Positions 3,606 through 45,223 of a stretch of 64,000 bases of DNA are shown one piece after another. The stretch comes from Thermomicrobiales bacterium (GTDB lineage Bacteria; Chloroflexota; Chloroflexia; Thermomicrobiales; UBA6265). The position numbers and the translations under genes were made by a program. Numbering within the stretch: the stretch's first letter is position 1; the number at the start of each line of letters is the position of its first letter. The stretch spans positions 3,795 through 67,794 of the forward strand of contig JBHOQQ010000070.1 of assembly GCA_042408955.1 (NCBI GenBank), written 5' to 3'. The notes under the pieces were generated by a model, which was given only the letters and a program-made list of their open reading frames with translations, ran no database searches and was not told the origin of the DNA.

Positions 3606-5114
3606 ATGACCAAGCCGTTGCTGGCCATGCACAACATCCACAAGCGCTTTCCTGGCGTCCACGCGCTCAACAACGTGTCGATCGAAGTGCACGCTGGTGA
3701 GGTTCTGGCGCTTGTTGGCGAAAATGGCGCTGGCAAATCCACGCTGATGAAGATCCTCGCCGGGGCGATCCAGCCAGACGAGGGCAGGATCGAGATCGAC
3801 GGCCAACCGGTGACGTTCCACACGCCGCGTGACGCGCTTTCGCTTGGCATCGGGATCATCTACCAAGAGCTCAGCTTGGTCGATGCCCTCAGCGTAGGGG
3901 AAAATATCTTCCTGGGCGACCTCCCTCGGCATCCCAAGATTCCAGGCAAAGTCGATTGGCCCACGCTCTGGCGCCGCACAGCGGAGATTCTGAACCGCGT
4001 CGGGGCACACGTGCGCCCGCAAACTCCGGTGCGACACCTGAGCGTGGCCCAAAAGCAAATGGTTGAAATCGCTCGCGCGCTCGCACGCAACGTGCGGATC
4101 CTGATTCTTGACGAGCCGACTAGTGCGCTGACAACGCAAGAAACGGAAACTCTCTTCGATATCATTGCCTCCCTCCGAGAACGTGGAGTGGGCATCATCT
4201 ACATCTCTCACCGGCTGGAGGAGATCTTCGCGGTCGCGCAGCGTGTCACCGTTCTCCGCGACGGCCAGCTCGTCGGGACACTGCCGATCGCTGAGGCGAC
4301 ACACGAGCGCCTGATCAGCATGATGGTTGGCCGCGACCTAAGCAATCTCTTTTCGCGTGCCGCCGCGACCGAAGGGCCCGTGCGCCTGGAGGTACGCGGG
4401 TTGCAGCGCGCTGGCGTGCTGCGAGATATCAGCTTTCATGTTCGCGCAGGCGAAATTCTCGGTATCGCTGGCCTGGTTGGTTCGGGGCGCACCGAGCTTG
4501 TACGCTCGATTTTCGGCGCTGATCCGATCGACGGAGGCGAAATCTTATTGGATGGCAAGCCGGTGACGATTCGATCCCCGCGCGATGCCGTCCGCCTCGG
4601 TATCGGCCTTGTTCCAGAGGATCGCAAGCAGCAGGCATTGCTGCTGAGGATGGCCGTCCGCGAGAATATCTCCCTGCCTGTGCTGACACGCCTGGGCTCC
4701 CCGATGTTCCCATCGCGAGCACAGGAGCGTAGCCTGGCAAGCCACTTCGTCACGAACCTCCGCATCCGCACTCCGTCAATCGAGCAGAACGTGAGTGCCC
4801 TCAGCGGTGGGAATCAGCAAAAGGTCGTTATTGCCCGCTGGCTGGCCCTGCAACCCAAGGTGCTCATCTTAGACGAGCCGACGCGCGGCATCGACGTTGG
4901 CGCCAAGGCCGAGGTGCACGCACTGATTGCCCAGCTTGCCGAGCAAGGCGTGGCGATCATCATGGTCTCCTCCGAGTTGCCGGAAATTCTGGGCATGAGC
5001 CATCGCATCCTGGTTATGCGCCAGGGCAGGATCACCGCCGACATTCCGCGGGAAGACGCCACGGAAGAGCGGATCATGACCGCGGCGACCGGCCAGTTTG
5101 CGGAGGTGGCGTAG
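3606..5114 (+). CDS. Sugar ABC transporter ATP-binding protein (duplicated NBD, RbsA/MglA-like)
   Basis: Walker A GENGAGKST, second NBD GLVGSGRTE, signature LSGGNQQK, Walker B ILILDEPT and VLILDEPT. ATG 3606 follows GAGGT; the upstream 27 codons of the ORF-track call look non-coding. Confidence 0.9.
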   Translation: MTKPLLAMHNIHKRFPGVHALNNVSIEVHAGEVLALVGENGAGKSTLMKILAGAIQPDEGRIEIDGQPVTFHTPRDALSLGIGIIYQELSLVDALSVGENIFLGDLPRHPKIPGKVDWPTLWRRTAEILNRVGAHVRPQTPVRHLSVAQKQMVEIARALARNVRILILDEPTSALTTQETETLFDIIASLRERGVGIIYISHRLEEIFAVAQRVTVLRDGQLVGTLPIAEATHERLISMMVGRDLSNLFSRAAATEGPVRLEVRGLQRAGVLRDISFHVRAGEILGIAGLVGSGRTELVRSIFGADPIDGGEILLDGKPVTIRSPRDAVRLGIGLVPEDRKQQALLLRMAVRENISLPVLTRLGSPMFPSRAQERSLASHFVTNLRIRTPSIEQNVSALSGGNQQKVVIARWLALQPKVLILDEPTRGIDVGAKAEVHALIAQLAEQGVAIIMVSSELPEILGMSHRILVMRQGRITADIPREDATEERIMTAATGQFAEVA

Positions 5115-6087
5115 GGGAATTGACAGCCGCGAGCTTGGCCGCGATCTCGGCGTTGATCCCCCACTTCGGCGGATAAAACGGCTCCACCGGGCCGGCAGCC
5201 GGCCGGAATGTTCTCTTCAGGCGCGTCCGCTCACTGCGCAGGTCGGGGAAAGCGATACGCGAGTACTTATCCACCTCGCAGAAGAGGTTCTGGCAATCGA
5301 TGGCGTGCAGTGAGCGGCCCCAGAGCGACTGAAACCGCAAACCGAGCCGGTCAAACTCCGCCTCTTGCCGCTCGACCATCCAGTGGATGACCGCGGGCAG
5401 CGTGAGCGATCCGGTATGGACGAAGCACTTGCGAATGCCGCGCACCGCGCCCGGTCCCGGCACGGTAAAACCGTTCTCGTCGAAGTCGAACAACTCGCTG
5501 TAATTCAGGTCGATCGCAAGCTGGTAGGCCAAGAATGGCCCAACCAGCGGGTAGGCCAGCAGCAGGCGATAGACGGCGTCCAAACCGCGGGAGCGCGCGA
5601 GCTTCGCTGGCAACCGGTCGCGCAGCATCGCCTCGACCAAGGCCAGGTGCTGGCGATGCTTGCTTCGGGGGCCGCAAGCGGAGCCCGGCGGCAGGATAAA
5701 GGCGCTGGTGTAGATCGCATCTCCGTTGTCCAGCGCCGCCTCGAGGGTAGTAGCGAACGCGGCGGGATCGAAGGAACCGGTGCAGATCGGCCCGTGTGCT
5801 GACTCGAGCCGTTGCCAGGTTGCAATCCGGCTGAACAGGCGGAAGAGAACGATCCGCAGCACCGTGTCCTCCGGCGAGAATCCGGGTTGATAGATCACCT
5901 CACGGATGAGGAACTGGGAGACCCGGTCGCTGGCGCGATAGGCGTTGCAGAATCGATAGGCGCGTAGGATCGGATCGGCGGTCCAAGGCGGCGGTGCGCC
6001 ATCGAGGCGGCGGAAAAAGATGGCCTGCCGCTCGGCGGCAAAGCGCCAGTAGGTATCGAACACAGTCGACCGTGGGAGGGGCTGCAT
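5074..6087 (-). CDS. aGPT-Pplase-like protein (putative DNA base hypermodification family); assignment from memory of family motifs
   Basis: 337-aa ORF. N-terminal TYWRFAAERQAIFFRR...PPWTADPILRAYRFCNAYRASDRVSQFLI, and central GPFLAYQLAIDLNYS plus VPGPGAVRGI. I recall these as signatures of alpha-glutamyl/putrescinyl thymine pyrophosphorylase-type proteins. The 3' end overlaps the convergent ATPase gene by 41 nt. Confidence 0.5.
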   Translation of the reverse strand: MQPLPRSTVFDTYWRFAAERQAIFFRRLDGAPPPWTADPILRAYRFCNAYRASDRVSQFLIREVIYQPGFSPEDTVLRIVLFRLFSRIATWQRLESAHGPICTGSFDPAAFATTLEAALDNGDAIYTSAFILPPGSACGPRSKHRQHLALVEAMLRDRLPAKLARSRGLDAVYRLLLAYPLVGPFLAYQLAIDLNYSELFDFDENGFTVPGPGAVRGIRKCFVHTGSLTLPAVIHWMVERQEAEFDRLGLRFQSLWGRSLHAIDCQNLFCEVDKYSRIAFPDLRSERTRLKRTFRPAAGPVEPFYPPKWGINAEIAAKLAAVNSPTPPPQTGRSPRS

Positions 6088-6192
6088 GCTGTTACATCCG
6101 AGGTATCCTACCTAGTGCCGTCCGGCTGGTGACGATTTCAGATACTGAGATCCTTGCGCGCAACCAGGCCCGAGGCCCGTGGCTCGTGAAAG

Positions 6193-6954
6193 CTACTCTT
6201 CGGCAAACTGGAAGAGCGAGCAGCCGCCATCCACCAGCAGGACGGCGCCGGTCATGTAGTCCGCGGCGGAGGAGCAGAGGAACGCCGTCGCTTTCGCCAC
6301 TTGCTCGGCCGTTTGTAATTGACCCAGCGGAATGACGTGCCGGATGCGGCGGGCATACTGCGGCTCTGTCTCCATCTGGTGCTTGGCGAGCCCCGCGTAG
6401 ACGATCCCAGGAGCGATCACATTGACCAGAATCTTATGCTTGGCTAGCTCGCGCGCCATCGATTTGGCAAGCATCCGCACGCCAGCCTTGGTCGCCGAAT
6501 ACGCCGCGATCTCCGGCCACGGCACCTCCTGGACCCAGGTGCCCGTAAAGATAATTCTCCCTGGCCGCCCCCGCGCGACCATCAGCCGGGCAGCCGCCTG
6601 CCCGACGTTGAAACAACCGGTGAGATTCACATCCATGTGCTCCTGCCATTGTGCGGGTGTGATGTCCAGAAATGGGATGCCGAAGCCGATGGCTTGGTTC
6701 GCAATAGCGATATCCAGCGGGTCAATGGCAGCCAGGACAGCATCAATCGCTGGGCGATCGCGGACATCGGCTTGCACGTAGGCGACATCGCCGTGCTGGC
6801 GCGCCCGCTCCAACCAAGGTGCTGCTTCCTGTGGCGATTTCCGATCAATGAGCGTCACGCGAGCGCCGAGCCGGGTTAGCTCTGCGGCCATCGCCGAGCC
6901 GATATCGCCCGCCCCACCGGTAATCACGATTCCCAATCCCGCGATACCTTCCAC
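6193..6954 (-). CDS. SDR-family oxidoreductase
   Basis: TGGAGDIGSA (TGxxxGxG) and YSATKAG (YxxxK). GTG 6954 is preceded by GGAGGG. Confidence 0.9.
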   Translation of the reverse strand: MEGIAGLGIVITGGAGDIGSAMAAELTRLGARVTLIDRKSPQEAAPWLERARQHGDVAYVQADVRDRPAIDAVLAAIDPLDIAIANQAIGFGIPFLDITPAQWQEHMDVNLTGCFNVGQAAARLMVARGRPGRIIFTGTWVQEVPWPEIAAYSATKAGVRMLAKSMARELAKHKILVNVIAPGIVYAGLAKHQMETEPQYARRIRHVIPLGQLQTAEQVAKATAFLCSSAADYMTGAVLLVDGGCSLFQFAEE

Positions 6955-7027
6955 GGCTGCACCCTCCTCTACGATCGCATTGGGGATGATCGCCCAATCT
7001 CCTCCGCGGCTTCATTGCCATGCGGTC

Positions 7028-7059
7028 TTGACATCGCTCTGAAGCTCCGGTATTGTACC
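7028..7059 (+). promoter_or_regulatory. Promoter of the GntR-family gene with overlapping GGTA-TTG-TACC palindrome
   Basis: TTGACA (7028-7033), 17 nt spacer, TATTGT (7051-7056). GGTATTGTACC (7049-7059) is a GntR-style GT-N-AC palindrome over the -10 box. The ATG at 7069 leaves a leader of only about 6 nt. Confidence 0.55.
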
Positions 7060-7068
7060 AGCACTGCT

Positions 7069-7890
7069 ATGACCGGTAAGACCAACCAGGCTGTGATTCA
7101 CCTCTCTCGCGGTGAACTCGCAGCGACACTCGAAGAGCGGATTCTCAGCGGGGAATGGCCCGTGGGTACCCGGTTACCTTCTGAACGCCAGCTGGCCGAG
7201 TACTACGGTGTCAGCCGGCCAGTGGTGCGAGAGGCATTACGCGCGCTCAGCGAGCACGGACTCGTCGAAATCCTGCCAGGCCGCGGCTCCTTCGTCCGGC
7301 AAGCCCAGGCGACCGACGCGGCGAGCCGCCTAGACGCGCTGTACCGGCGCCGGCAGGCCACGCCTCGCGATCTCGTCGAGGCCCGAACCACTCTGGAGTG
7401 CGCCGCGGCCGCGCTGGCAGCCGAGCGTGCCAGCGCCGACGATTTGGCTACGATCGAGGCCGCCCTGCAGCGATTCGACCAAAGCCAGAGCATCGTCGAG
7501 CAAGCCAGGTACGACCTGGCATTTCATCTCGCCATTGCACGCGCAGCCCATAATCCAGTCATCGAGACGATGTTTGGGTCTATCACTACCCTGACATTCG
7601 AGCTTATGCTGCGCAGTCTTAGCGACCCTGATGTTGCGCGCGTCTCACTACCGTATCATCACGTTATCTACCAGGCGATCCAAGAGCGAGCAGTCGAGCG
7701 GGCCCGCACGGCCATGGCAGAACATCTCGCGGTAGCCAGCACGCATTATGGTGACGACTACAATCGCAGCATAGAAAGTGTCACCCCACGACAGTTCGCC
7801 AGAATGCTCGATCCTGGCGTGACGCTTGAAGATCTTCTGACCGACCACCGATACGCCCGACGCGCCAGTGGGCAAGGAGGAGGCTCATGA
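7069..7890 (+). CDS. GntR/FadR-family (FCD domain) transcriptional regulator
   Basis: Winged helix LPSERQLAEYYGVSRPVVREALRAL plus a C-terminal all-helical FCD-like domain (DLAFHLAIARAAHNP). The ORF-track TTG at 7015 lies upstream of the promoter, so ATG 7069 is preferred. Confidence 0.85.
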   Translation: MTGKTNQAVIHLSRGELAATLEERILSGEWPVGTRLPSERQLAEYYGVSRPVVREALRALSEHGLVEILPGRGSFVRQAQATDAASRLDALYRRRQATPRDLVEARTTLECAAAALAAERASADDLATIEAALQRFDQSQSIVEQARYDLAFHLAIARAAHNPVIETMFGSITTLTFELMLRSLSDPDVARVSLPYHHVIYQAIQERAVERARTAMAEHLAVASTHYGDDYNRSIESVTPRQFARMLDPGVTLEDLLTDHRYARRASGQGGGS

Positions 7891-8684
7891 CAGCGCCCAT
7901 CAGCAGTGAGACGACGAGCGCGGACGCACCCGGAAGCCCCCTGCTTGAAGCTCGTGGCATCTGCAAGGCATTTCTGCACGTGCAAGCGCTGCAGGACGTG
8001 GACTTCCGTGTCTATCCAGGCGAAATCGTCGCGCTGGTCGGCGATAACGGCGCTGGCAAGAGCACGCTGATGAAGATCCTCTGCGGTGCCTATCACGCCG
8101 ATCGCGGCCGGATTTTCATTGATGGCCGCGAGGTGACGATCCGCAACCCGCACGATGCGCAGGCACTCGGCATCGCAGTCGTTTACCAGGATCTCGCCCT
8201 GGTCAACCAGCGCGATGTGGCGAGCAATGTCTTCCTCGGGCGTGAGCCCAAGCGCGGGATCGGTCTTGTGGACAAGCCGCGGATGGTCCGGGAATCACGC
8301 CAGGTGTTGCAGCGGCTCAAGATCAACATCCCTTCGGTCTACGCGCAAGTCGGACTCCTCTCCGGCGGCCAGCGGCAAGCGGTGGCTATTGCCAGGGCGA
8401 TTCACCAGGGTGGCCGCCTCATCTTCATGGATGAGCCGACCGCCGCCCTGGGCGTCCAGGAGCAGGCGAAAGTCCTCAAGCTGATCGAGGATCTGAAAGC
8501 AGAAGGGACCGCAGTCGTCGTCGTCAGCCATAACCTGCAACACGTCTTTCATGTGGCCGACCGGATCGTCGTCTTGCGCGGCGGCTGCAACGCCGGAGAG
8601 CGCCTGAAGGCCGAGACGACGCCGGAGGAGATCGTGCGGCTGATTGTCGGGGCTGATCGCATCGTTCCAGCAGAGGTGGCATAG
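7887..8684 (+). CDS. ABC transporter ATP-binding protein (single NBD, sugar type)
   Basis: GDNGAGKST, LSGGQRQAVAIARA, LIFMDEPTAAL. The ATG overlaps the regulator stop (ATGA). Confidence 0.9.
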   Translation: MTAPISSETTSADAPGSPLLEARGICKAFLHVQALQDVDFRVYPGEIVALVGDNGAGKSTLMKILCGAYHADRGRIFIDGREVTIRNPHDAQALGIAVVYQDLALVNQRDVASNVFLGREPKRGIGLVDKPRMVRESRQVLQRLKINIPSVYAQVGLLSGGQRQAVAIARAIHQGGRLIFMDEPTAALGVQEQAKVLKLIEDLKAEGTAVVVVSHNLQHVFHVADRIVVLRGGCNAGERLKAETTPEEIVRLIVGADRIVPAEVA

Positions 8685-36605: not shown

Positions 36606-37026
36606 GCGCGCCATCAGCAACCAGATGTCAGCAGGTCCGGTTGCAGAGCGACAACCTATGCGCTGGCAACGTCCATTTTTCCTGGGACAGCCGGGGCAGG
36701 CACTGGCCCTGATGGCAGCGGCGTCACACCTTACCAAACCAACACTGTTCGTACACCTTGTCTTGGATTGTAATGCCCAGGCCCTACCGTGACTCACAGA
36801 CACATAGTACTTTTCCGCGATGCAACCGCTAGGACCAATTTCGCCATCCGTGTTACCCAAAATCCCTATACCAAATGTCCAGCGCGCTCGTTACGTTTTG
36901 ACCGGGGATCAATGTGACGCGGCTCCATGCTGAGGGGACAGGACACCGGAGACACGGTTCCTGGGGGCGGGCAGGGGCTACGCGGGTGGCCGGTGGGCAT
37001 GTGTAGTGTGGGAGAGGGTGCTGGCA

Positions 37027-37740
37027 ATGTTGAAGCGACGGATCATGCTCGTTGACGATCATCCCATGTATCGGCGGGGGCTGAGACGCCTGCTCGAAGA
37101 ATCTGGCCGGTACCAAGTGGTCGCGGAAGCAGAAAACGGGCATCAGGCCATACATCTCGCCGATGTTCACCATCCGGATGTCGTGATTCTTGACGTCCAG
37201 CTTCCTGGCGTCACAGGGCTCAAGATTGCCCGGGTGATTCGCAGGCAGCAACAGCGCGCTAAGCTCGTCTTTCTCTCAATGCACATCGACGACAATCGCC
37301 TGTTCGACGCCATCCGGGCGGGCGCGGTGGCGTTCCTCACCAAAGACATTGACGGCGAGGCGCTGCTCGATGCGCTACGGCGCGTCGTGATGGGCGAGAA
37401 CCTGATCAATTCGCTCATCCTTTCCCGGCCAAAGTTGGCGTGGCGTGTGTTGTCCGAGTTCCGGCAAATCGCCCAGGATGGCGAAGGGCTCCCTGGCACG
37501 ATGCCGCTGTCGGCACGGGAGATCGAGGTTCTCGACTGTGTCGCGCAGGGGCTCTCGAACAAGGAGATCGCGGACGCCCTCTTTGTGACCGAGCAAACGG
37601 TCAAGAACCATATGACGTCTGTGCTGCGCAAGCTGGACGTGAATGACCGGGTGCAGGCGGTGCTTTACGCTGTCCGGCATGGCTGGATCGAAATCGGCCC
37701 GCAATCCTACGCGGCGGTAGACGTGCCCAAATCCGCCTAG
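37027..37740 (+). CDS. NarL/LuxR-family response regulator (orphan)
   Basis: REC domain (VDDH, ILDVQLPG, LSMH, LTKD) plus LuxR HTH (LSAREIEVLDCVAQGLSNKEIADALFVTEQTVKNHM). ATG 37027 follows GGGAGAGGG. Confidence 0.9.
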   Translation: MLKRRIMLVDDHPMYRRGLRRLLEESGRYQVVAEAENGHQAIHLADVHHPDVVILDVQLPGVTGLKIARVIRRQQQRAKLVFLSMHIDDNRLFDAIRAGAVAFLTKDIDGEALLDALRRVVMGENLINSLILSRPKLAWRVLSEFRQIAQDGEGLPGTMPLSAREIEVLDCVAQGLSNKEIADALFVTEQTVKNHMTSVLRKLDVNDRVQAVLYAVRHGWIEIGPQSYAAVDVPKSA

Positions 37741-38640: not shown

Positions 38641-39225
38641 TCACGAGGCCGGCGTAGCCTCCACGTCGGTGGATGTGCCAGCCGCGCCACCTGACTGGAC
38701 AAGGTAGACCGTTACCTGCGTTCGGCCATCCATGCCCCCGCTGAGAATCGCCACGCCAGCGTATCCGGAGTTGTTGAGTTCACCGAGTCCGAACGTGAGC
38801 GTGTCACCAACGCGCGTGCCGCCAACGTTGCCGCACGCGATGTAGTTGCCGATATTCTCTTGGCTTTCATGCACGTTGATGGCATATGGAGCAGCCAGCA
38901 AGTCATCGAGGCTGACCTCAAGCTGGGTAACACTCATGAGCACGGGAATGGCATTCGCGGCGCCGGCCTGCTCACCGGCCATGGGACTCGCTTCCATCCC
39001 AGCCATCGTGCCACTGATTTCCGCGATATTGGTGAGGGGATACACCACCTCGCCGAGGTTGTCGCACGTCCCTGAGTGAATGTGTGCCGGATGCCCAGCG
39101 GTTACCTGACCCGGCGCCGCAGTGGGACTTGCTTCCTGCGCCTGTACTGCCACTGCGCCGGCAACGAGCAACCCAACGATGCCGACGATGCCCCCAAGCT
39201 GTGCTACCAATCGCCCCAGTCTCAT
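38641..39225 (-). CDS. Secreted single-domain HxHxGxC protein (paralogue of 22371-22755)
   Basis: Signal peptide (LVAQLGGIVGIVGLLVAGAVAVQA). AHIHSGTC, VSLDDLLAAPYAINVH, IACGNVGG, SGYAGVAIL, VTVYL. SD GGAGGGT. Confidence 0.75.
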   Translation of the reverse strand: MRLGRLVAQLGGIVGIVGLLVAGAVAVQAQEASPTAAPGQVTAGHPAHIHSGTCDNLGEVVYPLTNIAEISGTMAGMEASPMAGEQAGAANAIPVLMSVTQLEVSLDDLLAAPYAINVHESQENIGNYIACGNVGGTRVGDTLTFGLGELNNSGYAGVAILSGGMDGRTQVTVYLVQSGGAAGTSTDVEATPAS

Positions 39226-39367
39226 ACTCGGTCACCCTCCTGTGACATCGATCCGGCCAGCACGCGCCGCGCTGGCGCTCAGGAGGGTGCATGCGGTATG
39301 CCAGGAAGGCACTGGGTGACCCCGCGGCGTGACATGTAGGCTACCTGGCCGCCTAGCAGCCCCTCGG

Positions 39368-39733
39368 TCAATGACGGTCAACATGCGGCTGGTAGCGCAC
39401 GATGGTAACTGGGTCGGTGGTGATGAGTCCGCCCTGCAACATTTCTTCAATCGCTGGCAAGAGGCGAGCGACTCGTTCTTCCGTGTCGATCCACTCCAGC
39501 ACGAGCGGCAAATCCGCCGACAGATCGACAATGGACGCCGCGTGGATCTTGCTGTGGGCACCGTAACCGGCCAGACCGCGTGTCACGGTGGCGCCGGCCG
39601 CGCCTTCCCTCCGGAGAAATTCAAGGAGCGCGCTCCAGAGCGGTTGTCCATAATGCCGGTCCCGCTCACCAAAATACGCACGGACGCGGATCCCCCGCCC
39701 GTTCATCTGATGCTCAAGCGCTTCGCGCCCCAC
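39368..39733 (-). CDS. DUF190 (PII-like) protein
   Basis: IRVRAYFGERDRHYGQPLWSALLEFLRREGAAGATVTRGLAGYG. GTG 39733 follows GAGGAG, 30 nt after the MFS stop. Confidence 0.75.
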   Translation of the reverse strand: MGREALEHQMNGRGIRVRAYFGERDRHYGQPLWSALLEFLRREGAAGATVTRGLAGYGAHSKIHAASIVDLSADLPLVLEWIDTEERVARLLPAIEEMLQGGLITTDPVTIVRYQPHVDRH

Positions 39734-39763
39734 CAGCGCACTCCTCGCTCCTTGTCCGCCCCG

Positions 39764-40966
39764 CTATCGCTGGCGCCGAACCGCCAAAAGCACAGGCACG
39801 GCTGCGGCTTGGGTCAGGACAGCAAAGGCCACCACGGTGCCAACCGACCGATCGTAAAGCAATCCCATGACCGCGCTGCCGGCAAACCACGCCATGCCAT
39901 AGCCACCATTGAACAGGCCATAGGCGGCAGCACGGCGCTGCGTTGAAACCAATTCTGCCACTGCCGCCCGCATAATGGACTCTTGGCTGGCCAAGCCAAT
40001 GCCCCACAAGCTGACGCCAATCAACGCCGCAACCGGCCCACCTAGAAAGACCAGTGGAGCGAACGGCAAGGCCAGCATGACCGCTGCGGCTACAACTGGG
40101 TAGCTAAAGCGATCGAACAGGCGCCCAAGAACAAGCGCCCCAATGGCATCAATGCCCATTGCCACTGCGTAATACACCGGGATAAGGGCATCGCGCACAA
40201 CCGCGTCGTGGGCAAGATGATAGGCAATCAGGGCGAAATCAGCGAATCCAGCCCCGACCAGCGCCGAGCCCGCCAAATAGATCCAAAACGCTTTAGGCCA
40301 ACCATGCGTGACAAGCGGCTCGGCCGCCTCGAAGGCACCAGGGTGGGGATGCCAGAACCGGACCGCGATCAACACGCCGAGTGTGCAAAGCGCGGGGATC
40401 GCTAGCACGGCCAAACCTGTTCGATAGCCATCTCCCAGCCACATCACCGCGACGACGAGTAACGGCCCAAGCACCGCACCTGTTTGGTCAAGCGCCTCAT
40501 GGATTCCGAACCCCCAGCCTCGTCCGACCTGGGAGGTGGCATAGGAGAGCATCGCATCGCGCGCGGGTGTCCGCACTGCCTTACCAATCCTCTCGGCAAT
40601 GAGCAGCAGTACAGCCCATTGCCAGTGCCCAACCAGCGCAAGCAACGGCACCGCCACCATGTTGATGGTGTACCCCGTAAGGGTGATGGTCCAATACCGT
40701 GCGGTCCGGTCGCTAATGTAGCCAGAAACGATGCGCAGCGCGTAGCCCAGCAATTCGCCGAGCCCGGCCGTGACGCCCACAACAGTCGCGCTGGCGCCAA
40801 GCATGGCAAGATAAGGTCCCGCAATGCTGCGCGCCCCCTCGTAGGCCATATCAGCGAACAAACTGACGACTCCGAGCAGGACGACGAATTGCAGTGCCCG
40901 CTTGGCGTCACTGCCGCGTGGCTGGCTGGAGGTGCCTTGGAAATGATCAGCGGCCTGATGGGTCAT
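39764..40966 (-). CDS. MFS transporter (about 12 TM)
   Basis: 400-aa polytopic ORF with a motif-A-like GYISDRTARYW. The ATG directly abuts the stop of the upstream gene. Confidence 0.85.
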   Translation of the reverse strand: MTHQAADHFQGTSSQPRGSDAKRALQFVVLLGVVSLFADMAYEGARSIAGPYLAMLGASATVVGVTAGLGELLGYALRIVSGYISDRTARYWTITLTGYTINMVAVPLLALVGHWQWAVLLLIAERIGKAVRTPARDAMLSYATSQVGRGWGFGIHEALDQTGAVLGPLLVVAVMWLGDGYRTGLAVLAIPALCTLGVLIAVRFWHPHPGAFEAAEPLVTHGWPKAFWIYLAGSALVGAGFADFALIAYHLAHDAVVRDALIPVYYAVAMGIDAIGALVLGRLFDRFSYPVVAAAVMLALPFAPLVFLGGPVAALIGVSLWGIGLASQESIMRAAVAELVSTQRRAAAYGLFNGGYGMAWFAGSAVMGLLYDRSVGTVVAFAVLTQAAAVPVLLAVRRQR

Positions 40967-41698
40967 TCACTGATCCTGGCGAGCGTGGCCGGCCCCACCA
41001 GGCCAGCCAGCGACGTGATAGACCGCGCGCTGGGCTGCTCCACGCTCGATGCCCGCCGGCTCGTGCCGGTAGCGATAGTCGTGTTTCCGAATGATCTCAC
41101 GAAGGTGCCGGCGGAGTTGCCCCACCTGCGCGATCGCCACCTCACGGAGTATGGCAAACTCCTCCGGCGCGGCACGGCATAGCGCCTGGCGCAGATGCGG
41201 GATACACAGTGTGGCCGACTGGGCATACGCGGCCCGAAACTCCGGCTCTGACAACCCCGCGATGAGTGCTGTGACGGCTATCGCCGCCGCTTCATCCCGG
41301 ACCCGGCAGAAGGGACACTGGCCATCAGGCTTGAGCAGCGTACATTCCCGATCCGAACTCGCATCGCCAGAGAGAGTGAATCGCGCGACGATTTCCAGCA
41401 GACGCCCGCCGCGTTGCGAGGGCTCAAGCTGCCGGAGCGCCGCCTCGATCTCCTTGAGCACACCGTCGTACACCAGGGAGGTGCTGAGAACGCGGGCGCG
41501 GGCAAGCCACTTGTTGGCATGCTCCGGGCAAAATCCCCAGGCGGCATCGACGTCCGCGCGGAAGCCTGGATCGTTGACAAACTCATAGTCAACGCTGTCC
41601 ATCGCGTGCTCCACCGCCCGGTGCATCAAGCGGCAAACAGGACAGCCGGGCATGGGGAATGCGTCGAGCAGGTCTTCGTGCGCCGCTGATCGCTCCAT
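40967..41698 (-). CDS. Cys-rich DUF6062-like protein (two CPxC...C-x2-H half-repeats)
   Basis: ATG 41698 follows GGAG. CPVC...GFCPEH and CPFC...LCIPH. The size (243 aa) and motifs fit my recollection of DUF6062. The ORF-track start 41794 lies inside the riboswitch. Confidence 0.65.
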   Translation of the reverse strand: MERSAAHEDLLDAFPMPGCPVCRLMHRAVEHAMDSVDYEFVNDPGFRADVDAAWGFCPEHANKWLARARVLSTSLVYDGVLKEIEAALRQLEPSQRGGRLLEIVARFTLSGDASSDRECTLLKPDGQCPFCRVRDEAAAIAVTALIAGLSEPEFRAAYAQSATLCIPHLRQALCRAAPEEFAILREVAIAQVGQLRRHLREIIRKHDYRYRHEPAGIERGAAQRAVYHVAGWPGGAGHARQDQ

Positions 41699-41710
41699 GC
41701 GGTATCTCCA

Positions 41711-41758
41711 CAAAACAAAAGCTTCTACCGCCCCATGACATCGGGAGCAGGTAGAAGC
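41711..41758 (-). terminator. Riboswitch expression-platform terminator
   Basis: GCUUCUACC (41758-41750) pairs with GGUAGAAGC (41729-41721), followed by UUUUGUUUUG (41720-41711). The 5' arm is shared with the aptamer pseudoknot. Confidence 0.75.
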
Positions 41759-41798
41759 TATCAGCCGCTGCTGCGGCAGTGTGGCGAGCCTCATCGCC
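41750..41798 (-). promoter_or_regulatory. Fluoride riboswitch (crcB-motif) aptamer candidate
   Basis: GGCGAUGAGGCUCGCC ACA CUGCCGC AGCA GCGGC UGAUAGCUUCUACC. It has P1 GGCGA/UCGCC, pseudoknot GAGGC:GCUUC, hairpin CCGC/GCGG, and a CUGAU...UAC junction of the same length as the recalled reference sequences. Confidence 0.75.
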
Positions 41799-41835
41799 GG
41801 GAGACCAGCCTCATCTGCCTGGCCTCACCGCCGGG

Positions 41836-41864
41836 ATAGTAGGGTTGCGCACCAGGGCTGTCAA
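41836..41864 (-). promoter_or_regulatory. Promoter of the riboswitch operon
   Basis: On the minus strand: TTGACA (41864-41859), 17 nt spacer, TACTAT (41841-41836). Confidence 0.65.
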
Positions 41865-42061
41865 GCGCGATCTGCACACGATGATCTCCTGGGCTGCGTG
41901 AGCCGTGTTGCACGCTTTACAATCGGAGGTGCTGTTGCGCGGCGACGCTGGCAGTATGCCAGGTCATCGTTGAACGGCTCCACCGCACACCCGCCAACGC
42001 CAGAGGAGAGTACTCAGGTGGCGCATGACATCGCTGTAGCCTTCTGCATGGAGATCGCCCG

Positions 42062-42439
42062 GTGACCTATCTCCTTGTCGGGCTCGGCGGGTTTCTTGGC
42101 GCCAACGCGCGTTACGCGATCTCCGTTTGGGCGGCGAACCGGCTTGGCACTGCATTCCCGCACGGAACGTTTATCATCAACGTTTCCGGCAGCTTCCTCA
42201 TGGGCGTTGCCGTCACCCTTATCGCTGGCCGGTTCGATGATGCCGCCAGCGCCCGCTTGCTGATCACCACGGGCTTTCTGGGCGCGTATACCACCTTCTC
42301 GACGTTTGCCTTCGAAACCCTGGCATTGCTTCGCCAGCGCGATTGGCGTGGTGGCCTTTTCAACGCTGTGGGCAGCGCCGGACTCGGCGCCGCCTCGGCA
42401 GCGCTCGGTATCTGGCTTACCAATCGGTCATTCGGATGA
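42062..42439 (+). CDS. crcB: Fluoride channel CrcB (copy 1)
   Basis: GLGGFLGANARY, FPHGTFIINVSGSFLMG, GFLGAYTTFSTF. GTG start after GGAG. Confidence 0.9.
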   Translation: MTYLLVGLGGFLGANARYAISVWAANRLGTAFPHGTFIINVSGSFLMGVAVTLIAGRFDDAASARLLITTGFLGAYTTFSTFAFETLALLRQRDWRGGLFNAVGSAGLGAASAALGIWLTNRSFG

Positions 42440-43011
42440 GCGGCACGCATCCCAACCCTGGCCCGCGAATGCAGTACACCACCCACGGCCACGAGCCCAT
42501 GTCACGTCCGCATGTGACTGTGGCACCCGGCGACTCGGCGCTGCCGGACGGAGTGCTGGCGCAGCGTCCCGCTGGGAGCCAGCAGCCAACCACAGGTCCA
42601 TCACATCCGCCTCCCTCGTTCGCTCTGCACGAGACCATCGTGACCATCACCGCGGTCGGGCTCGGTGGCGTGCTCGGCGCCAACGCGCGTTACGTTCTGG
42701 GGACCTGGGCACAAGCGGCCTGGGGTTCCGAGTTCCCCTGGGGAACGCTGCTCATCAACGTGCTCGGCAGCCTGCTGATCGGTGTCTTCCTGACGCTCGC
42801 CACGGAGCGCCTCACGATTCGCCCAGCGACGCGCCTATTCGTCGCGACCGGTATCCTTGGAGCATTTACCACCTTCTCGACGATGAGCTATGAACTTGTG
42901 CACCTGCTCCAAGCCGGCGCCCTAATCCGGGCTGTGCTGTATCTGCTGGCGAGTCTCGGCCTCGGCCTCATTGCCGTCATTGGCGGCCGCGTGCTAGCGC
43001 TCGCGGTTTAG
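42436..43011 (+). CDS. crcB: Fluoride channel CrcB (copy 2), possibly with a 68-aa Pro-rich N-terminal extension
   Basis: GLGGVLGANARY, FPWGTLLINVLGSLLIG, GILGAFTTFSTM. ATG 42436 overlaps the crcB1 stop (ATGA). The alternative GTG 42640 would give a canonical 123-aa protein. Confidence 0.85.
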   Translation: MSGTHPNPGPRMQYTTHGHEPMSRPHVTVAPGDSALPDGVLAQRPAGSQQPTTGPSHPPPSFALHETIVTITAVGLGGVLGANARYVLGTWAQAAWGSEFPWGTLLINVLGSLLIGVFLTLATERLTIRPATRLFVATGILGAFTTFSTMSYELVHLLQAGALIRAVLYLLASLGLGLIAVIGGRVLALAV

Positions 43012-43207
43012 CGCATCGGATGCGTTGCGGACGCAAGAGATTGCTCGCGCCGCTCAGGATGACCGTGGGAGGCGGCCGGAATGAGGCATCGCTAAGGCAA
43101 GCCGTGCTCGACCACGGGCATACCTGGCCCGCGTTTCCAGCCCGGCGAGTTGCCGAGAGCCGGCTCTCCGATGAAGCGCCACCATGTGGCGCGGCCCATC
43201 GTCCAGA

Positions 43208-43945
43208 TCATGGATGATGCGAGACCGGACGCGGCACGAGATTCTCGGCAAATGCGTAGAGCACCGCCTGCGTCCGGTCGCGCACGCCGATCTTCTGGAA
43301 GAGAGCGGAGAGATTGTTCTTGACCGTGCTCTCAGCGAGCGATAGTTCGTTGGCGATTTGCCGGTTGTTATAGCCGGCGGCCAAGAGCCGCAACAGGGTC
43401 AGATCCCGTTGCGTGAGCGCGCCATCGCGGTGGCCTTCGTCCGGCTGCCGCGTCACGAGGCGGTGATATTCGCGAATGAGCACCGGAGCCAGGGTGGGAT
43501 CAATTGCCGATCCGCCAGCGGCCGCCAGGCGTACCGCGCGGATGACATCCTCGGAGCGGGCATTTTTCAGCAGATAGCCCTTCGCCCCGGCGCGCACTGC
43601 CTGGATCGCGTAATCATCTTCCCAAAACATGGTCAGCACGATCACGCTGGTATCAGGGCAGAATCGTGTGACTGCCTCGGTTGCGCGGATACCATCAACA
43701 ACCGGCATATTGATGTCCATCAGAATTACCTGTGGGGCCAATTCCCGCGCGAGGCGGATCGCCTCCTCACCGTTCGCAGCCTCGCCCACGACGACGATGT
43801 CGCTCGTTTCCTCGAGGAGTTTCCGCAAGCCCTCGCGGACCAAATGATGATCATCGGCGAGCAAGACGGTGAGTCGCTTGTCTCCTGCCATCTTCGAGGG
43901 AGCGCCTTGTCCTGACCGGCGATCCGGAGCCGGGCTTCGCTCCAT
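43208..43945 (-). CDS. NarL/LuxR-family response regulator
   Basis: REC (LLADDHHLV, ILMDINMP) plus LuxR HTH (LTQRDLTLLRLLAAGYNNRQIANELSLAESTVKNNL). Start uncertain: ATG 44020, 43945 or 43891. Confidence 0.85.
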   Translation of the reverse strand: MERSPAPDRRSGQGAPSKMAGDKRLTVLLADDHHLVREGLRKLLEETSDIVVVGEAANGEEAIRLARELAPQVILMDINMPVVDGIRATEAVTRFCPDTSVIVLTMFWEDDYAIQAVRAGAKGYLLKNARSEDVIRAVRLAAAGGSAIDPTLAPVLIREYHRLVTRQPDEGHRDGALTQRDLTLLRLLAAGYNNRQIANELSLAESTVKNNLSALFQKIGVRDRTQAVLYAFAENLVPRPVSHHP

Positions 43946-44020
43946 GCGGGCACCCCCGTGTCCGTTATCGCTCAACTCACCACCTCCGGCATCACCCCAT
44001 GCCTGACGCCATCTTTTCAA

Positions 44021-45223
44021 TCAATCCCGGCTGCGCGCGCCGCCCTGTCCTGCGGAGAGAGGAATCCAGGCACGGACCGTTGTGCCGCCGCCCGGCCGCG
44101 ACCCTACCTCCAGTCGCCCTCCGGTCTCCTCCGCCAGCTCCTTGATCTGCTCCAGGCCAAAATGCCCGACAGGCGCAACGCCGTCGAACCCAACGCCGTC
44201 GTCGGCGACCTCGATCTCGATCGCATGGTCTGCCCGGCGCACTTCCAGGTGCACCCGGTCCGCTTGTGCATGCTTGCGCACGTTGTGCAGCGCCTCTCGA
44301 ACAATGCCGACGATGGCCCGCTCAACTTCGGGCGCCAGCCGTACCCCACTCACCTGAGCAAACTTGACCTCCAGACCTGGCGCAGCGGGAGTCATTTCCG
44401 CGAGAAGCTCCCGTAGTGGTCCGGTAATGCTGGGAGCAGGCGGCTGGGACGAGCGAAGCCTGCCGATCGCTTTCCGCATGCCCAGGATCGCCCGATCAAT
44501 CAGATCGCGCGCCTGCCGGGCATCAGCGGTGATCGCCTGGTCCTCACCGAGTGTCCGGATGAGACGGTCCAGCGCCAGCCCTGCCAGAGCCAGGTCCTGG
44601 GTCGGTCCATCGTGCAATTCTCGGCTGATGTCCTTGCGTGCTGCCGTCAGCTCTCGCTCGTGCTCGGCGCGGGAGATCGAAAGCTCCATGCGCTGGCGCA
44701 TGACGATCGCTTCCAGCGCTTGCGCCGTGACCACGCCAATCGCTCCAACCGCGAGGCGCTCAGCGGCCGTCGTCGCCGGTATCGCCCCGCCGGTACCGGC
44801 AAGGAGCAACGAGCCGAGCAATGAGTCACCTCGGACGAGCGGCACAACGAGGAGCGCAGGCGACCCTTCGATGACATACTGACCTGGTCCAGTGCTCGGC
44901 TCCCCCGGTGCATGCGCGGCGATCCACCGCTGGTGGAGCGATGCAGCAGCTACCTCCAGCGCTTGGCGCGGCAGGGATGGCGGCGTGGCATAGGCGACGG
45001 CGAAGAATCCACGCTCATCCGGCCGCAGGAGCGCAACACTGCTCACTCCGGAAACCCGTGCTGCAAGGCGGCATGCAGTCCGATAGACCCCAACCAGCGT
45101 CCGCTCGCCAGCAATGGTCGCAAGGCCGCGCACCATCGCGTCGGCGGCTCTCTGGACCGGCTCCATTCTGGCCTCCGGCGGAGCCGCTGGCTCGACCGAC
45201 TCTGTATTCGCGATTGGGCGCAT
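44021..45223 (-). CDS. Cytoplasmic GAF-type sensor histidine kinase (HisKA_3)
   Basis: H-box ISRELHDGPTQDL, N-box REALHNVRKHA, DDGVGF, GHFGL. No TM segments. SD GGAGAG. Confidence 0.85.
   Translation of the reverse strand: MRPIANTESVEPAAPPEARMEPVQRAADAMVRGLATIAGERTLVGVYRTACRLAARVSGVSSVALLRPDERGFFAVAYATPPSLPRQALEVAAASLHQRWIAAHAPGEPSTGPGQYVIEGSPALLVVPLVRGDSLLGSLLLAGTGGAIPATTAAERLAVGAIGVVTAQALEAIVMRQRMELSISRAEHERELTAARKDISRELHDGPTQDLALAGLALDRLIRTLGEDQAITADARQARDLIDRAILGMRKAIGRLRSSQPPAPSITGPLRELLAEMTPAAPGLEVKFAQVSGVRLAPEVERAIVGIVREALHNVRKHAQADRVHLEVRRADHAIEIEVADDGVGFDGVAPVGHFGLEQIKELAEETGGRLEVGSRPGGGTTVRAWIPLSAGQGGARSRD

Follow-up and report, generated by a model that had tools for sequence, protein, structure and literature searches.

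A predicted fluoride riboswitch precedes a DUF6062–MFS–DUF190 operon in a Thermomicrobiales bacterium, and both DUF6062 and the MFS subfamily recur behind fluoride aptamers

We analysed a 64-kb stretch of DNA from a Thermomicrobiales bacterium (contig JBHOQQ010000070.1, positions 3,795 to 67,794 of the forward strand; "the window" below means this stretch at its full length), in which a leader RNA of the fluoride riboswitch class (crcB motif) lies on the minus strand ahead of consecutive genes for a DUF6062 protein, a transporter of the major facilitator superfamily (MFS) and a DUF190 protein. We conclude that this RNA, whose binding of the ligand we infer, is a transcriptional ON fluoride riboswitch. 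Surveys of related loci show that DUF6062 and the MFS subfamily are recurrent members, together or apart, of an extended fluoride regulon in several lineages, many further uncultured bacteria among them. The RNA is of a known kind and the effector proteins are the new part. The leader and the operon comprise the following features:

41836..41864, minus strand: sigma-70-type promoter (–35 hexamer TTGACA at 41864-41859, 17-nt spacer, –10 hexamer TACTAT at 41841-41836; 10/12 matches)
41800..41830, minus strand: 5' hairpin that separates the probable transcription start from the aptamer, part of the minimum-free-energy fold and kept in relatives
41745..41807, minus strand: fluoride riboswitch aptamer, from the RF01734 match and P1/pseudoknot covariation
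41711..41759, minus strand: intrinsic terminator, the predicted expression platform (stem of 41759-41750 with 41729-41720, an inner helix extension and the U-tract UUUUGUUUU)
40967..41698, minus strand: DUF6062 gene, 243 aa (Pfam PF19538, 73.3 bits against a gathering score of 27, covering profile positions 18-238 of 243)
39764..40966, minus strand: MFS transporter gene, 400 aa (Pfam MFS_1, PF07690, 78.3 bits against 33.4)
39368..39733, minus strand: DUF190 gene (COG1993, PII-like; Pfam PF02641, 116.9 bits against 23.4)

The genes are as tightly packed as a preliminary description of this DNA had reported, and the Pfam assignments agree with the order it gave. The DUF6062 stop codon ends at 40967 and the MFS ATG begins at 40966, making the two contiguous, and DUF190 starts 30 nt past the MFS stop with a GGAG of its own in front. 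A longer reading frame opening at an ATG inside the aptamer (41794) was rejected as the DUF6062 start, because homologues begin at the methionine at 41698, which is preceded by a Shine-Dalgarno sequence (GGAG, 41709-41706) 7 nt ahead of the ATG.

When the entire window was scanned against 4227 Rfam families, two matches reached threshold, one tRNA and one Fluoride (RF01734). The latter, at 41807-41745 on the minus strand, scores 36.6 bits (gathering score 34, E=1.8e-6), and its alignment spans the full model (positions 1-64). P1 pairs 41798-41795 with 41786-41783, P3 pairs 41777-41773 with 41768-41764, and the pseudoknot pairs 41792-41788 (GAGGC) with 41758-41754 (GCUUC); all 9 pairs of P1 and the pseudoknot form, one of them G-U, and the GAUG and CUGAU cores are intact. 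The 3' strand of the pseudoknot sits inside the 5' arm of the terminator, whose 10-bp stem joins AGCUUCUACC (41759-41750) to GGUAGAAGCU (41729-41720) and is followed by UUUGUUUUG. This hairpin belongs to the minimum-free-energy fold of the leader 41830-41695 (z=-3.7; 0/200 shuffles fold as well). What is demonstrated computationally is the match to the aptamer model, the pairing and the competition between the two structures. Upstream, 37 nt separate the end of the –10 hexamer from P1; TTGACA-17-TACTAT is the sole sigma-70-like site within 39000-43300, a count that taken alone is at chance level (1 seen against 0.8 expected from shuffles).

The promoter, 5' hairpin, aptamer and terminator are all kept in four relatives (L041-L044; surveyed loci are cited by such numbers), whose DUF6062 proteins are 70-82% identical to that of the window and whose promoter reads TTGACA-17-TACCAT. 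Compensatory changes occur in P1 of L042 (GGCGA/UCGCC to GGUGA/UCACC) and in the inner stem of the terminator in L042 and L044 (CUCCG/CGGGC to CUCUG/CGAGC). The 5' hairpin at 41800-41830 (minus strand), also kept in the four relatives, repeats the aptamer loop string GAUGAGGCU and may serve for stability or be left over from a second aptamer.

Fixed-length P1 and pseudoknot cores were taken from 36 aptamers, 28 of them distinct, and nine pairs were counted; P3 was excluded because MAFFT misaligned this variable hairpin on full aptamers. Across the 28 distinct cores, 98% of the cells pair (88% in shuffles) and 27 cells carry double-sided changes, where the shuffles give 5.9 and not one of 500 reaches 27; with partner columns slid as a control, pairing is at most 59%. 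Compared with the consensus GGAGU/ACUCC, the window pseudoknot GAGGC/GCUUC has two fully compensated pairs and one G-U, a compensated variant that fits this covariation. Such a variant costs score; the window aptamer stands just above threshold and its relatives at 27-32 bits.

The preliminary description had transcribed the minus-strand leader exactly as it stands. Its claim of a fluoride aptamer passed the covariance-model test that it had itself put forward as decisive, and its GAGGC/GCUUC pseudoknot with one G-U pair fits the 28 cores. The promoter it placed 37 nt upstream lies where it was read and is conserved in the four relatives. The pseudoknot and terminator strands overlap as it had described, an overlap conserved with compensatory changes in relatives, and the compensatory changes it had proposed to look for in orthologous leaders are found in P1 of L042 and, for P1 and the pseudoknot together, over the 28 cores.

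The association of DUF6062 with fluoride aptamers extends well beyond the window. With a profile of 22 homologues we retrieved 39 loci from species-representative genomes, and 9/39 (L001, L002, L003, L011, L015, L016, L017, L020 and L023) have a threshold-level Fluoride match upstream on the same strand, with sub-threshold aptamers (23.6-31.4 bits) in four further loci (L004, L012, L018 and L032). The aptamer-bearing genomes are annotated as Chloroflexia, Thermomicrobiales, Caldithrix and unclassified bacteria. Behind the aptamer, DUF6062 follows crcB and DUF190 and precedes an HD-domain protein in L002; it follows a CLC and DUF190 in L003, and the CLC contains the strings GNNLI, GREGT and GEVTP, which we take to be hallmarks of CLC-F. 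In L004 the sub-threshold aptamer is followed by DUF6062 and inorganic pyrophosphatase, and in L023 the aptamer leads a C2H2 zinc-finger protein, enolase, an unknown protein, DUF6062 and a 165-aa protein. The L017 operon runs from the aptamer through DUF6062, a 157-aa protein, Na_H_Exchanger, Usp and a dynamin-like protein to an MFS that is 58% identical to that of the window.

Other features of these loci are worth recording. A protein of 150-165 aa without a Pfam match directly follows DUF6062 in L016 (7151-7609), L017 (6053-6526), L020 (6617-7087) and L023 (6585-7082); BLAST clustering also puts it after DUF6062 in the aptamer-less L019, and the L017 copy falls outside the cluster. In L001, a gene divergent from the aptamer-DUF6062-MFS unit (4421-5842, minus strand) encodes a DUF190 fused to four CBS domains and a coenzyme A-binding domain, and the MFS orthologue is split over two frames (6982-7401 and 7379-8161), a frameshift or an assembly error.

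We also surveyed 80 metagenome loci (599 kb) selected by MFS homology alone, in which aptamers were searched with an nhmmer aptamer profile and a regular expression. Aptamers were present in 22/80 loci, 38 in all; Rfam confirmed 34 at 38-66 bits in the 16 loci scanned and one more in L053. A genome carries, by our rough estimate, a handful of fluoride riboswitches, and the density in the MFS loci, about one aptamer per 16 kb, is far above that rough figure. The aptamers are placed directly upstream on the same strand, which is not random: the MFS is 66 nt from the aptamer in L103, L114, L115 and L118 and 114 nt from it in L097. DUF6062 lies within 5 kb in 12/80 loci. A survey for DUF6062-MFS pairs behind the motif, which the preliminary description had proposed, finds the window order of aptamer, DUF6062 and MFS again in L050, L054, L056 and L058 (DUF6062 Pfam-confirmed for L054), and MFS followed by DUF6062 closes long aptamer operons in L051 and L060. 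It is this repetition of aptamer-led loci, in both surveys, that makes the two families recurrent in the fluoride regulon.

Several of the MFS loci resemble fluoride islands (L118 1-11155, and also L103, L114, L115, L054, L056 and L058). In L118, six threshold-level fluoride aptamers occur in 11 kb, standing separately ahead of pyrophosphatase, MFS and S-adenosylmethionine synthetase; the MFS aptamer has a Usp gene shortly before it, with a dynamin-like gene and DUF6062 also in the vicinity. Dynamin_N GTPases are encoded directly behind aptamers or in aptamer-led operons in L020 (1518-3296), L023 (1403-3313), L017 (8169-9971) and L118 (633-2390). Paralogues with MutS domain V lie near aptamers in L097 (1370-4542, minus strand; a pair directly behind an aptamer), L054 (8138-9778) and L001 (2918-4420), identified by Pfam in the first two and by N-terminal similarity alone in L001. 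The crcB motif carries an old "mutS" association, which these neighbours match.

Around the operon of the window lie three further genes of interest:

38641..39225, minus strand: possible fourth operon gene, 194 aa, with an N-terminal hydrophobic stretch
42062..42439, plus strand: crcB (Fluc) gene 1, divergent (Pfam CRCB 92 bits; TIGR00494 94.8 bits against a cutoff of 80.45)
42640..43011, plus strand: crcB (Fluc) gene 2, start approximate (Pfam CRCB 99 bits; TIGR00494 103.2 bits against a cutoff of 80.45)

The 194-aa gene is on the operon strand, and terminator prediction gave none in the 142-nt gap that separates it from DUF190, so it may be the fourth gene of the operon; it is also found downstream of the operon in L040, L041 and L042. 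Its product is without a Pfam or NCBIfam match, and the hydrophobic N-terminus suggests export. Both CrcB proteins exceed the cutoff of TIGR00494, an NCBIfam equivalog model for fluoride efflux transporters. The plus strand of the crcB pair is without a Fluoride match, and a permissive Rfam rescan of 39000-43500 gave no second one even at E<=10, from which it follows that the divergent crcB genes are without an aptamer of their own, as had been noted by eye. This is ordinary, since riboswitches control only about 15% of Flucs (PMC11139923). The top protein match, 91% identical, comes from a Thermomicrobiales metagenome-assembled genome. The locus lies between LuxR-type response regulators (37006-37740, plus strand, and 43208-45223, minus strand), with a histidine kinase, predicted from sequence, beside the one on the crcB side; the arrangement is conserved in L041, where the kinase counterpart is HisKA_3.

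The subfamily to which the transporter belongs is unnamed, widespread and tightly conserved: more than 7900 homologues were found at E<1e-20, most of them 58-64% identical, and all are named just "MFS transporter". Its AlphaFold2 (AF2) model (mean predicted local distance difference test score, pLDDT, 86) consists of nearly all long helices, consistent with a 12-helix MFS protein, the helices not being individually counted. Foldseek matches the model to MFS structures at probability 1.00 (E ~1e-8, TM-score 0.66-0.74, 13-18% identity). Among PDB sequences phmmer found none at E<0.01, and NCBIfam returned noise only. Nine charged or polar helix residues are invariant (D39, E43, R46, E71, R78, H156, E157, D160 and E329), of which D39, E43 and R46 lie in the motif ADMxYEGARS of transmembrane helix 1 (TM1) and H156, E157 and D160 in TM5. 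The latter helix carries G154-x8-G163-x3-G167-P168, the G-x8-G-x3-G-P pattern of MFS antiporter motif C. Motif C together with the invariant charged residues favours a proton-coupled efflux antiporter.

What such an antiporter would move bears on the first of the alternatives, that the MFS subfamily is a third, structurally unrelated family of fluoride exporters, for F-, HF or a metal-fluoride, with DUF6062 as a dedicated cytosolic partner of an unseen helical fold. It would account for the five loci in which the MFS comes first behind a threshold-level aptamer, a slot usually held by CrcB or CLC-F, and it agrees with the efflux antiporter that we recognise in motif C and with NCBIfam and PDB sequence searches, which assign the subfamily no other function. 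The CRCB and Voltage_CLC models match neither the MFS nor the DUF6062 protein, so neither belongs to those exporter families. Yet dedicated exporters are present alongside, namely the two crcB genes here and, in L108, L114 and L115, CLC genes that have aptamers to themselves, and most of the invariant helix residues are acidic, whereas an MFS anion carrier would typically use arginine or lysine. These two considerations favour a secondary role over direct export, and we regard a secondary role as somewhat more likely and the complete exporter hypothesis as rather unlikely. The preliminary description had called the operon a candidate "new fluoride-response or export module"; the response part is strengthened by the recurrence behind aptamers, but the export part fares less well, the invariant charged residues pointing to a proton-coupled antiporter whose cavity is mainly acidic and not to an obvious anion site.

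DUF6062 is a large family (5071 representatives in metagenomes at E<=1e-3). The AF2 model of the window protein is all-helical (mean pLDDT 85). In an alignment of 22 homologues, down to 25% identity, C19/C22/C57/H60 and C128/C131/C165/H168 are invariant and an IIRKHDYRY motif is conserved; the two halves of the protein align to each other (E=8e-5), their CPxC and CxxH motifs falling at matching positions. The alignment points to an internally duplicated protein that has two Cys3His sites, from which metal binding would follow. The earlier label "Zn-knuckle-like" is only loosely right for this all-helical internal repeat and its two Cys3His sets. Foldseek found no PDB structure matching the model below E=1, no significant match came from a profile search of PDB sequences (the best, an ArsR protein, had E=0.1), and NCBIfam gave no DUF6062 match.

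The family is varied in architecture and context. Tandem doubles of 450-500 aa are numerous, and L032 encodes a 440-aa protein with extra CxxC repeats (5806-7128); a long palindrome in that locus (5004-5090) matches several miRNA models below their thresholds and was taken as spurious. Distant relatives (23-28% identity) lie immediately downstream of bshC and co-directional with it in L028, L031, L035, L037, L038 and L039, loci annotated Trueperaceae, Deinococcota or unclassified bacterium, and none of the six has a fluoride aptamer. The bshC adjacency hints at a link to thiol or zinc chemistry.

A different role for DUF6062 would be regulatory: as a switch that depends on a metal or a thiol, for example, it would relay the riboswitch signal to the divergent crcB genes or other targets. 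The aptamer-less crcB pair shares the intergenic region with the operon, DUF6062 resembles many zinc-dependent regulators in its two Cys3His sets, and the members after BshC suggest thiol or zinc chemistry; against this, no DNA-binding domain was detected, the ArsR sequence match at E=0.1 has no structural match beside it, and in L002 and L003 DUF6062 lies downstream of an exporter in the same operon, where a relay would be purposeless. We therefore consider a regulatory DUF6062 very improbable.

Several observations weigh against the interpretation of the locus as a fluoride riboswitch with new effector proteins. The window aptamer is 2.6 bits over its threshold, and its closest relatives are below it at 27-32 bits. 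Fluoride binding and read-through here would follow from membership of the class. The fetched flanks are without an aptamer in 26/39 DUF6062 loci and 58/80 MFS loci, and some DUF6062 genes stand in unrelated gene contexts; with most loci of both kinds lacking an aptamer, neither family is exclusively tied to fluoride. The metagenome loci include near-duplicate contigs (L054/56/58 and L114/115), so that independent counts are below the raw ones. No family-specific NCBIfam model names the MFS or DUF6062. The MFS is structurally equidistant from OxlT, NorA, VMAT and the MCTs, which does not discriminate its substrate, and a substrate assignment would come from motif reasoning only. The marginal scores (36.6 bits here, 27-32 in relatives) and the shortened linker before P3 could also be read as signs that the Thermomicrobiales-type aptamer has decayed or been re-specialised and no longer responds to fluoride. 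We give this reading hardly any credence, as the aptamer departs from the consensus by compensatory pseudoknot changes, its GAUG and CUGAU cores are intact, as is the terminator, and all are conserved in relatives with 70-82% identical DUF6062 proteins, and its neighbours are crcB and DUF190.

Taken as a whole, a fluoride-responsive ON switch with cargo from an extended regulon and the protein roles outlined here is, in our judgement, the probable explanation of the locus. The sigma-70-type promoter would give rise to a transcript whose leader holds the crcB-motif aptamer. Without fluoride, AGCUUCUACC would pair with GGUAGAAGCU, and the hairpin and U-tract would end transcription 13 nt before the DUF6062 start codon. 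In this riboswitch class the ligand is a Mg2+-fluoride cluster held by backbone phosphates. In the fluoride-bound state the pseudoknot would keep GCUUC paired with GAGGC of the P1 loop, and the terminator could then not form, so that the polymerase would read through into DUF6062, MFS and DUF190 and possibly also the 194-aa gene. The MFS would act as a proton-coupled efflux antiporter beside the constitutive Fluc channels encoded next door, most likely relieving a secondary consequence of fluoride, for instance an imbalance of cations or pH, or a metal or cationic species. DUF6062 would be a cytosolic protein with two Cys3His metal sites acting with the MFS, a partnership suggested by the translational coupling here and by the adjacency of the two genes, in either order, elsewhere. 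These roles of the two proteins are read from their sequences and gene contexts.

The riboswitch class itself is well populated, with more than 2500 examples in 24 bacterial divisions (PMC5473149), and terminators overlapping the crcB motif were already noted by Weinberg 2010 (PMC2864571), whose supplements mention neither MFS nor DUF190. Exporters are its commonest cargo, and a 2024 review lists as associated genes Fluc, CLC-F, Na+/H+ antiporters, pyrophosphatase, HAD-type phosphatases, enolase, formate hydrogen lyase and chorismate mutase, with a homeostasis role (cation or pH) proposed for the Na+/H+ antiporters of the regulon (PMC11139923). DUF6062 is named in no paper of the searchable literature, where no relevant paper ties MFS, DUF190 or dynamin to the fluoride riboswitch, a listing in the 2012 supplementary gene tables being possible.

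The interest of the locus is that repeated, independent evidence from gene context links two function-unassigned families to fluoride. Both known families of fluoride exporter, Fluc and CLC-F, were first recognised as riboswitch cargo, and the same logic points here to two further families without an assigned function, which makes DUF6062 and the MFS subfamily strong candidates for new fluoride-tolerance functions. If either protein acts on fluoride, or on fluoride-dependent pH, cation, metal or thiol stress, it would represent a new layer of microbial fluoride tolerance, a trait relevant to engineering organofluorine degradation and synthesis.

Compared with known systems, the window RNA shares with the RF01734 class its P1, P3 hairpin, loop-to-3'-tail pseudoknot, GAUG and CUGAU cores and overlapping terminator of an ON switch, but has GAGGC/GCUUC in place of GGAGU/ACUCC, a shorter linker before P3, an extra conserved 5' hairpin and a score barely over threshold. 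Like the Fluc (CrcB) and CLC-F systems, it heads an operon carrying a membrane transporter, and the MFS is directly behind the aptamer in five loci; unlike them, the transporter here has the MFS fold, and the local crcB genes are outside riboswitch control. Na+/H+ antiporters, pyrophosphatase and enolase share operons with DUF6062 and the MFS and offer plausible homeostasis models (PMC11139923), although they are other protein families and the readable associated-gene lists do not include MFS or DUF6062; Usp proteins also share these operons but are absent from the review list (PMC11139923). With OxlT, NorA, MdfA, VMAT and SfMCT the window transporter has in common the twelve-helix MFS fold and the G-x8-G-x3-G-P of TM5, and it differs from them in its low identity (13-18%) and in the TM1 motif ADMxYEGARS and the TM5 motif GWGFGxHExxDQ, which are specific to its subfamily.

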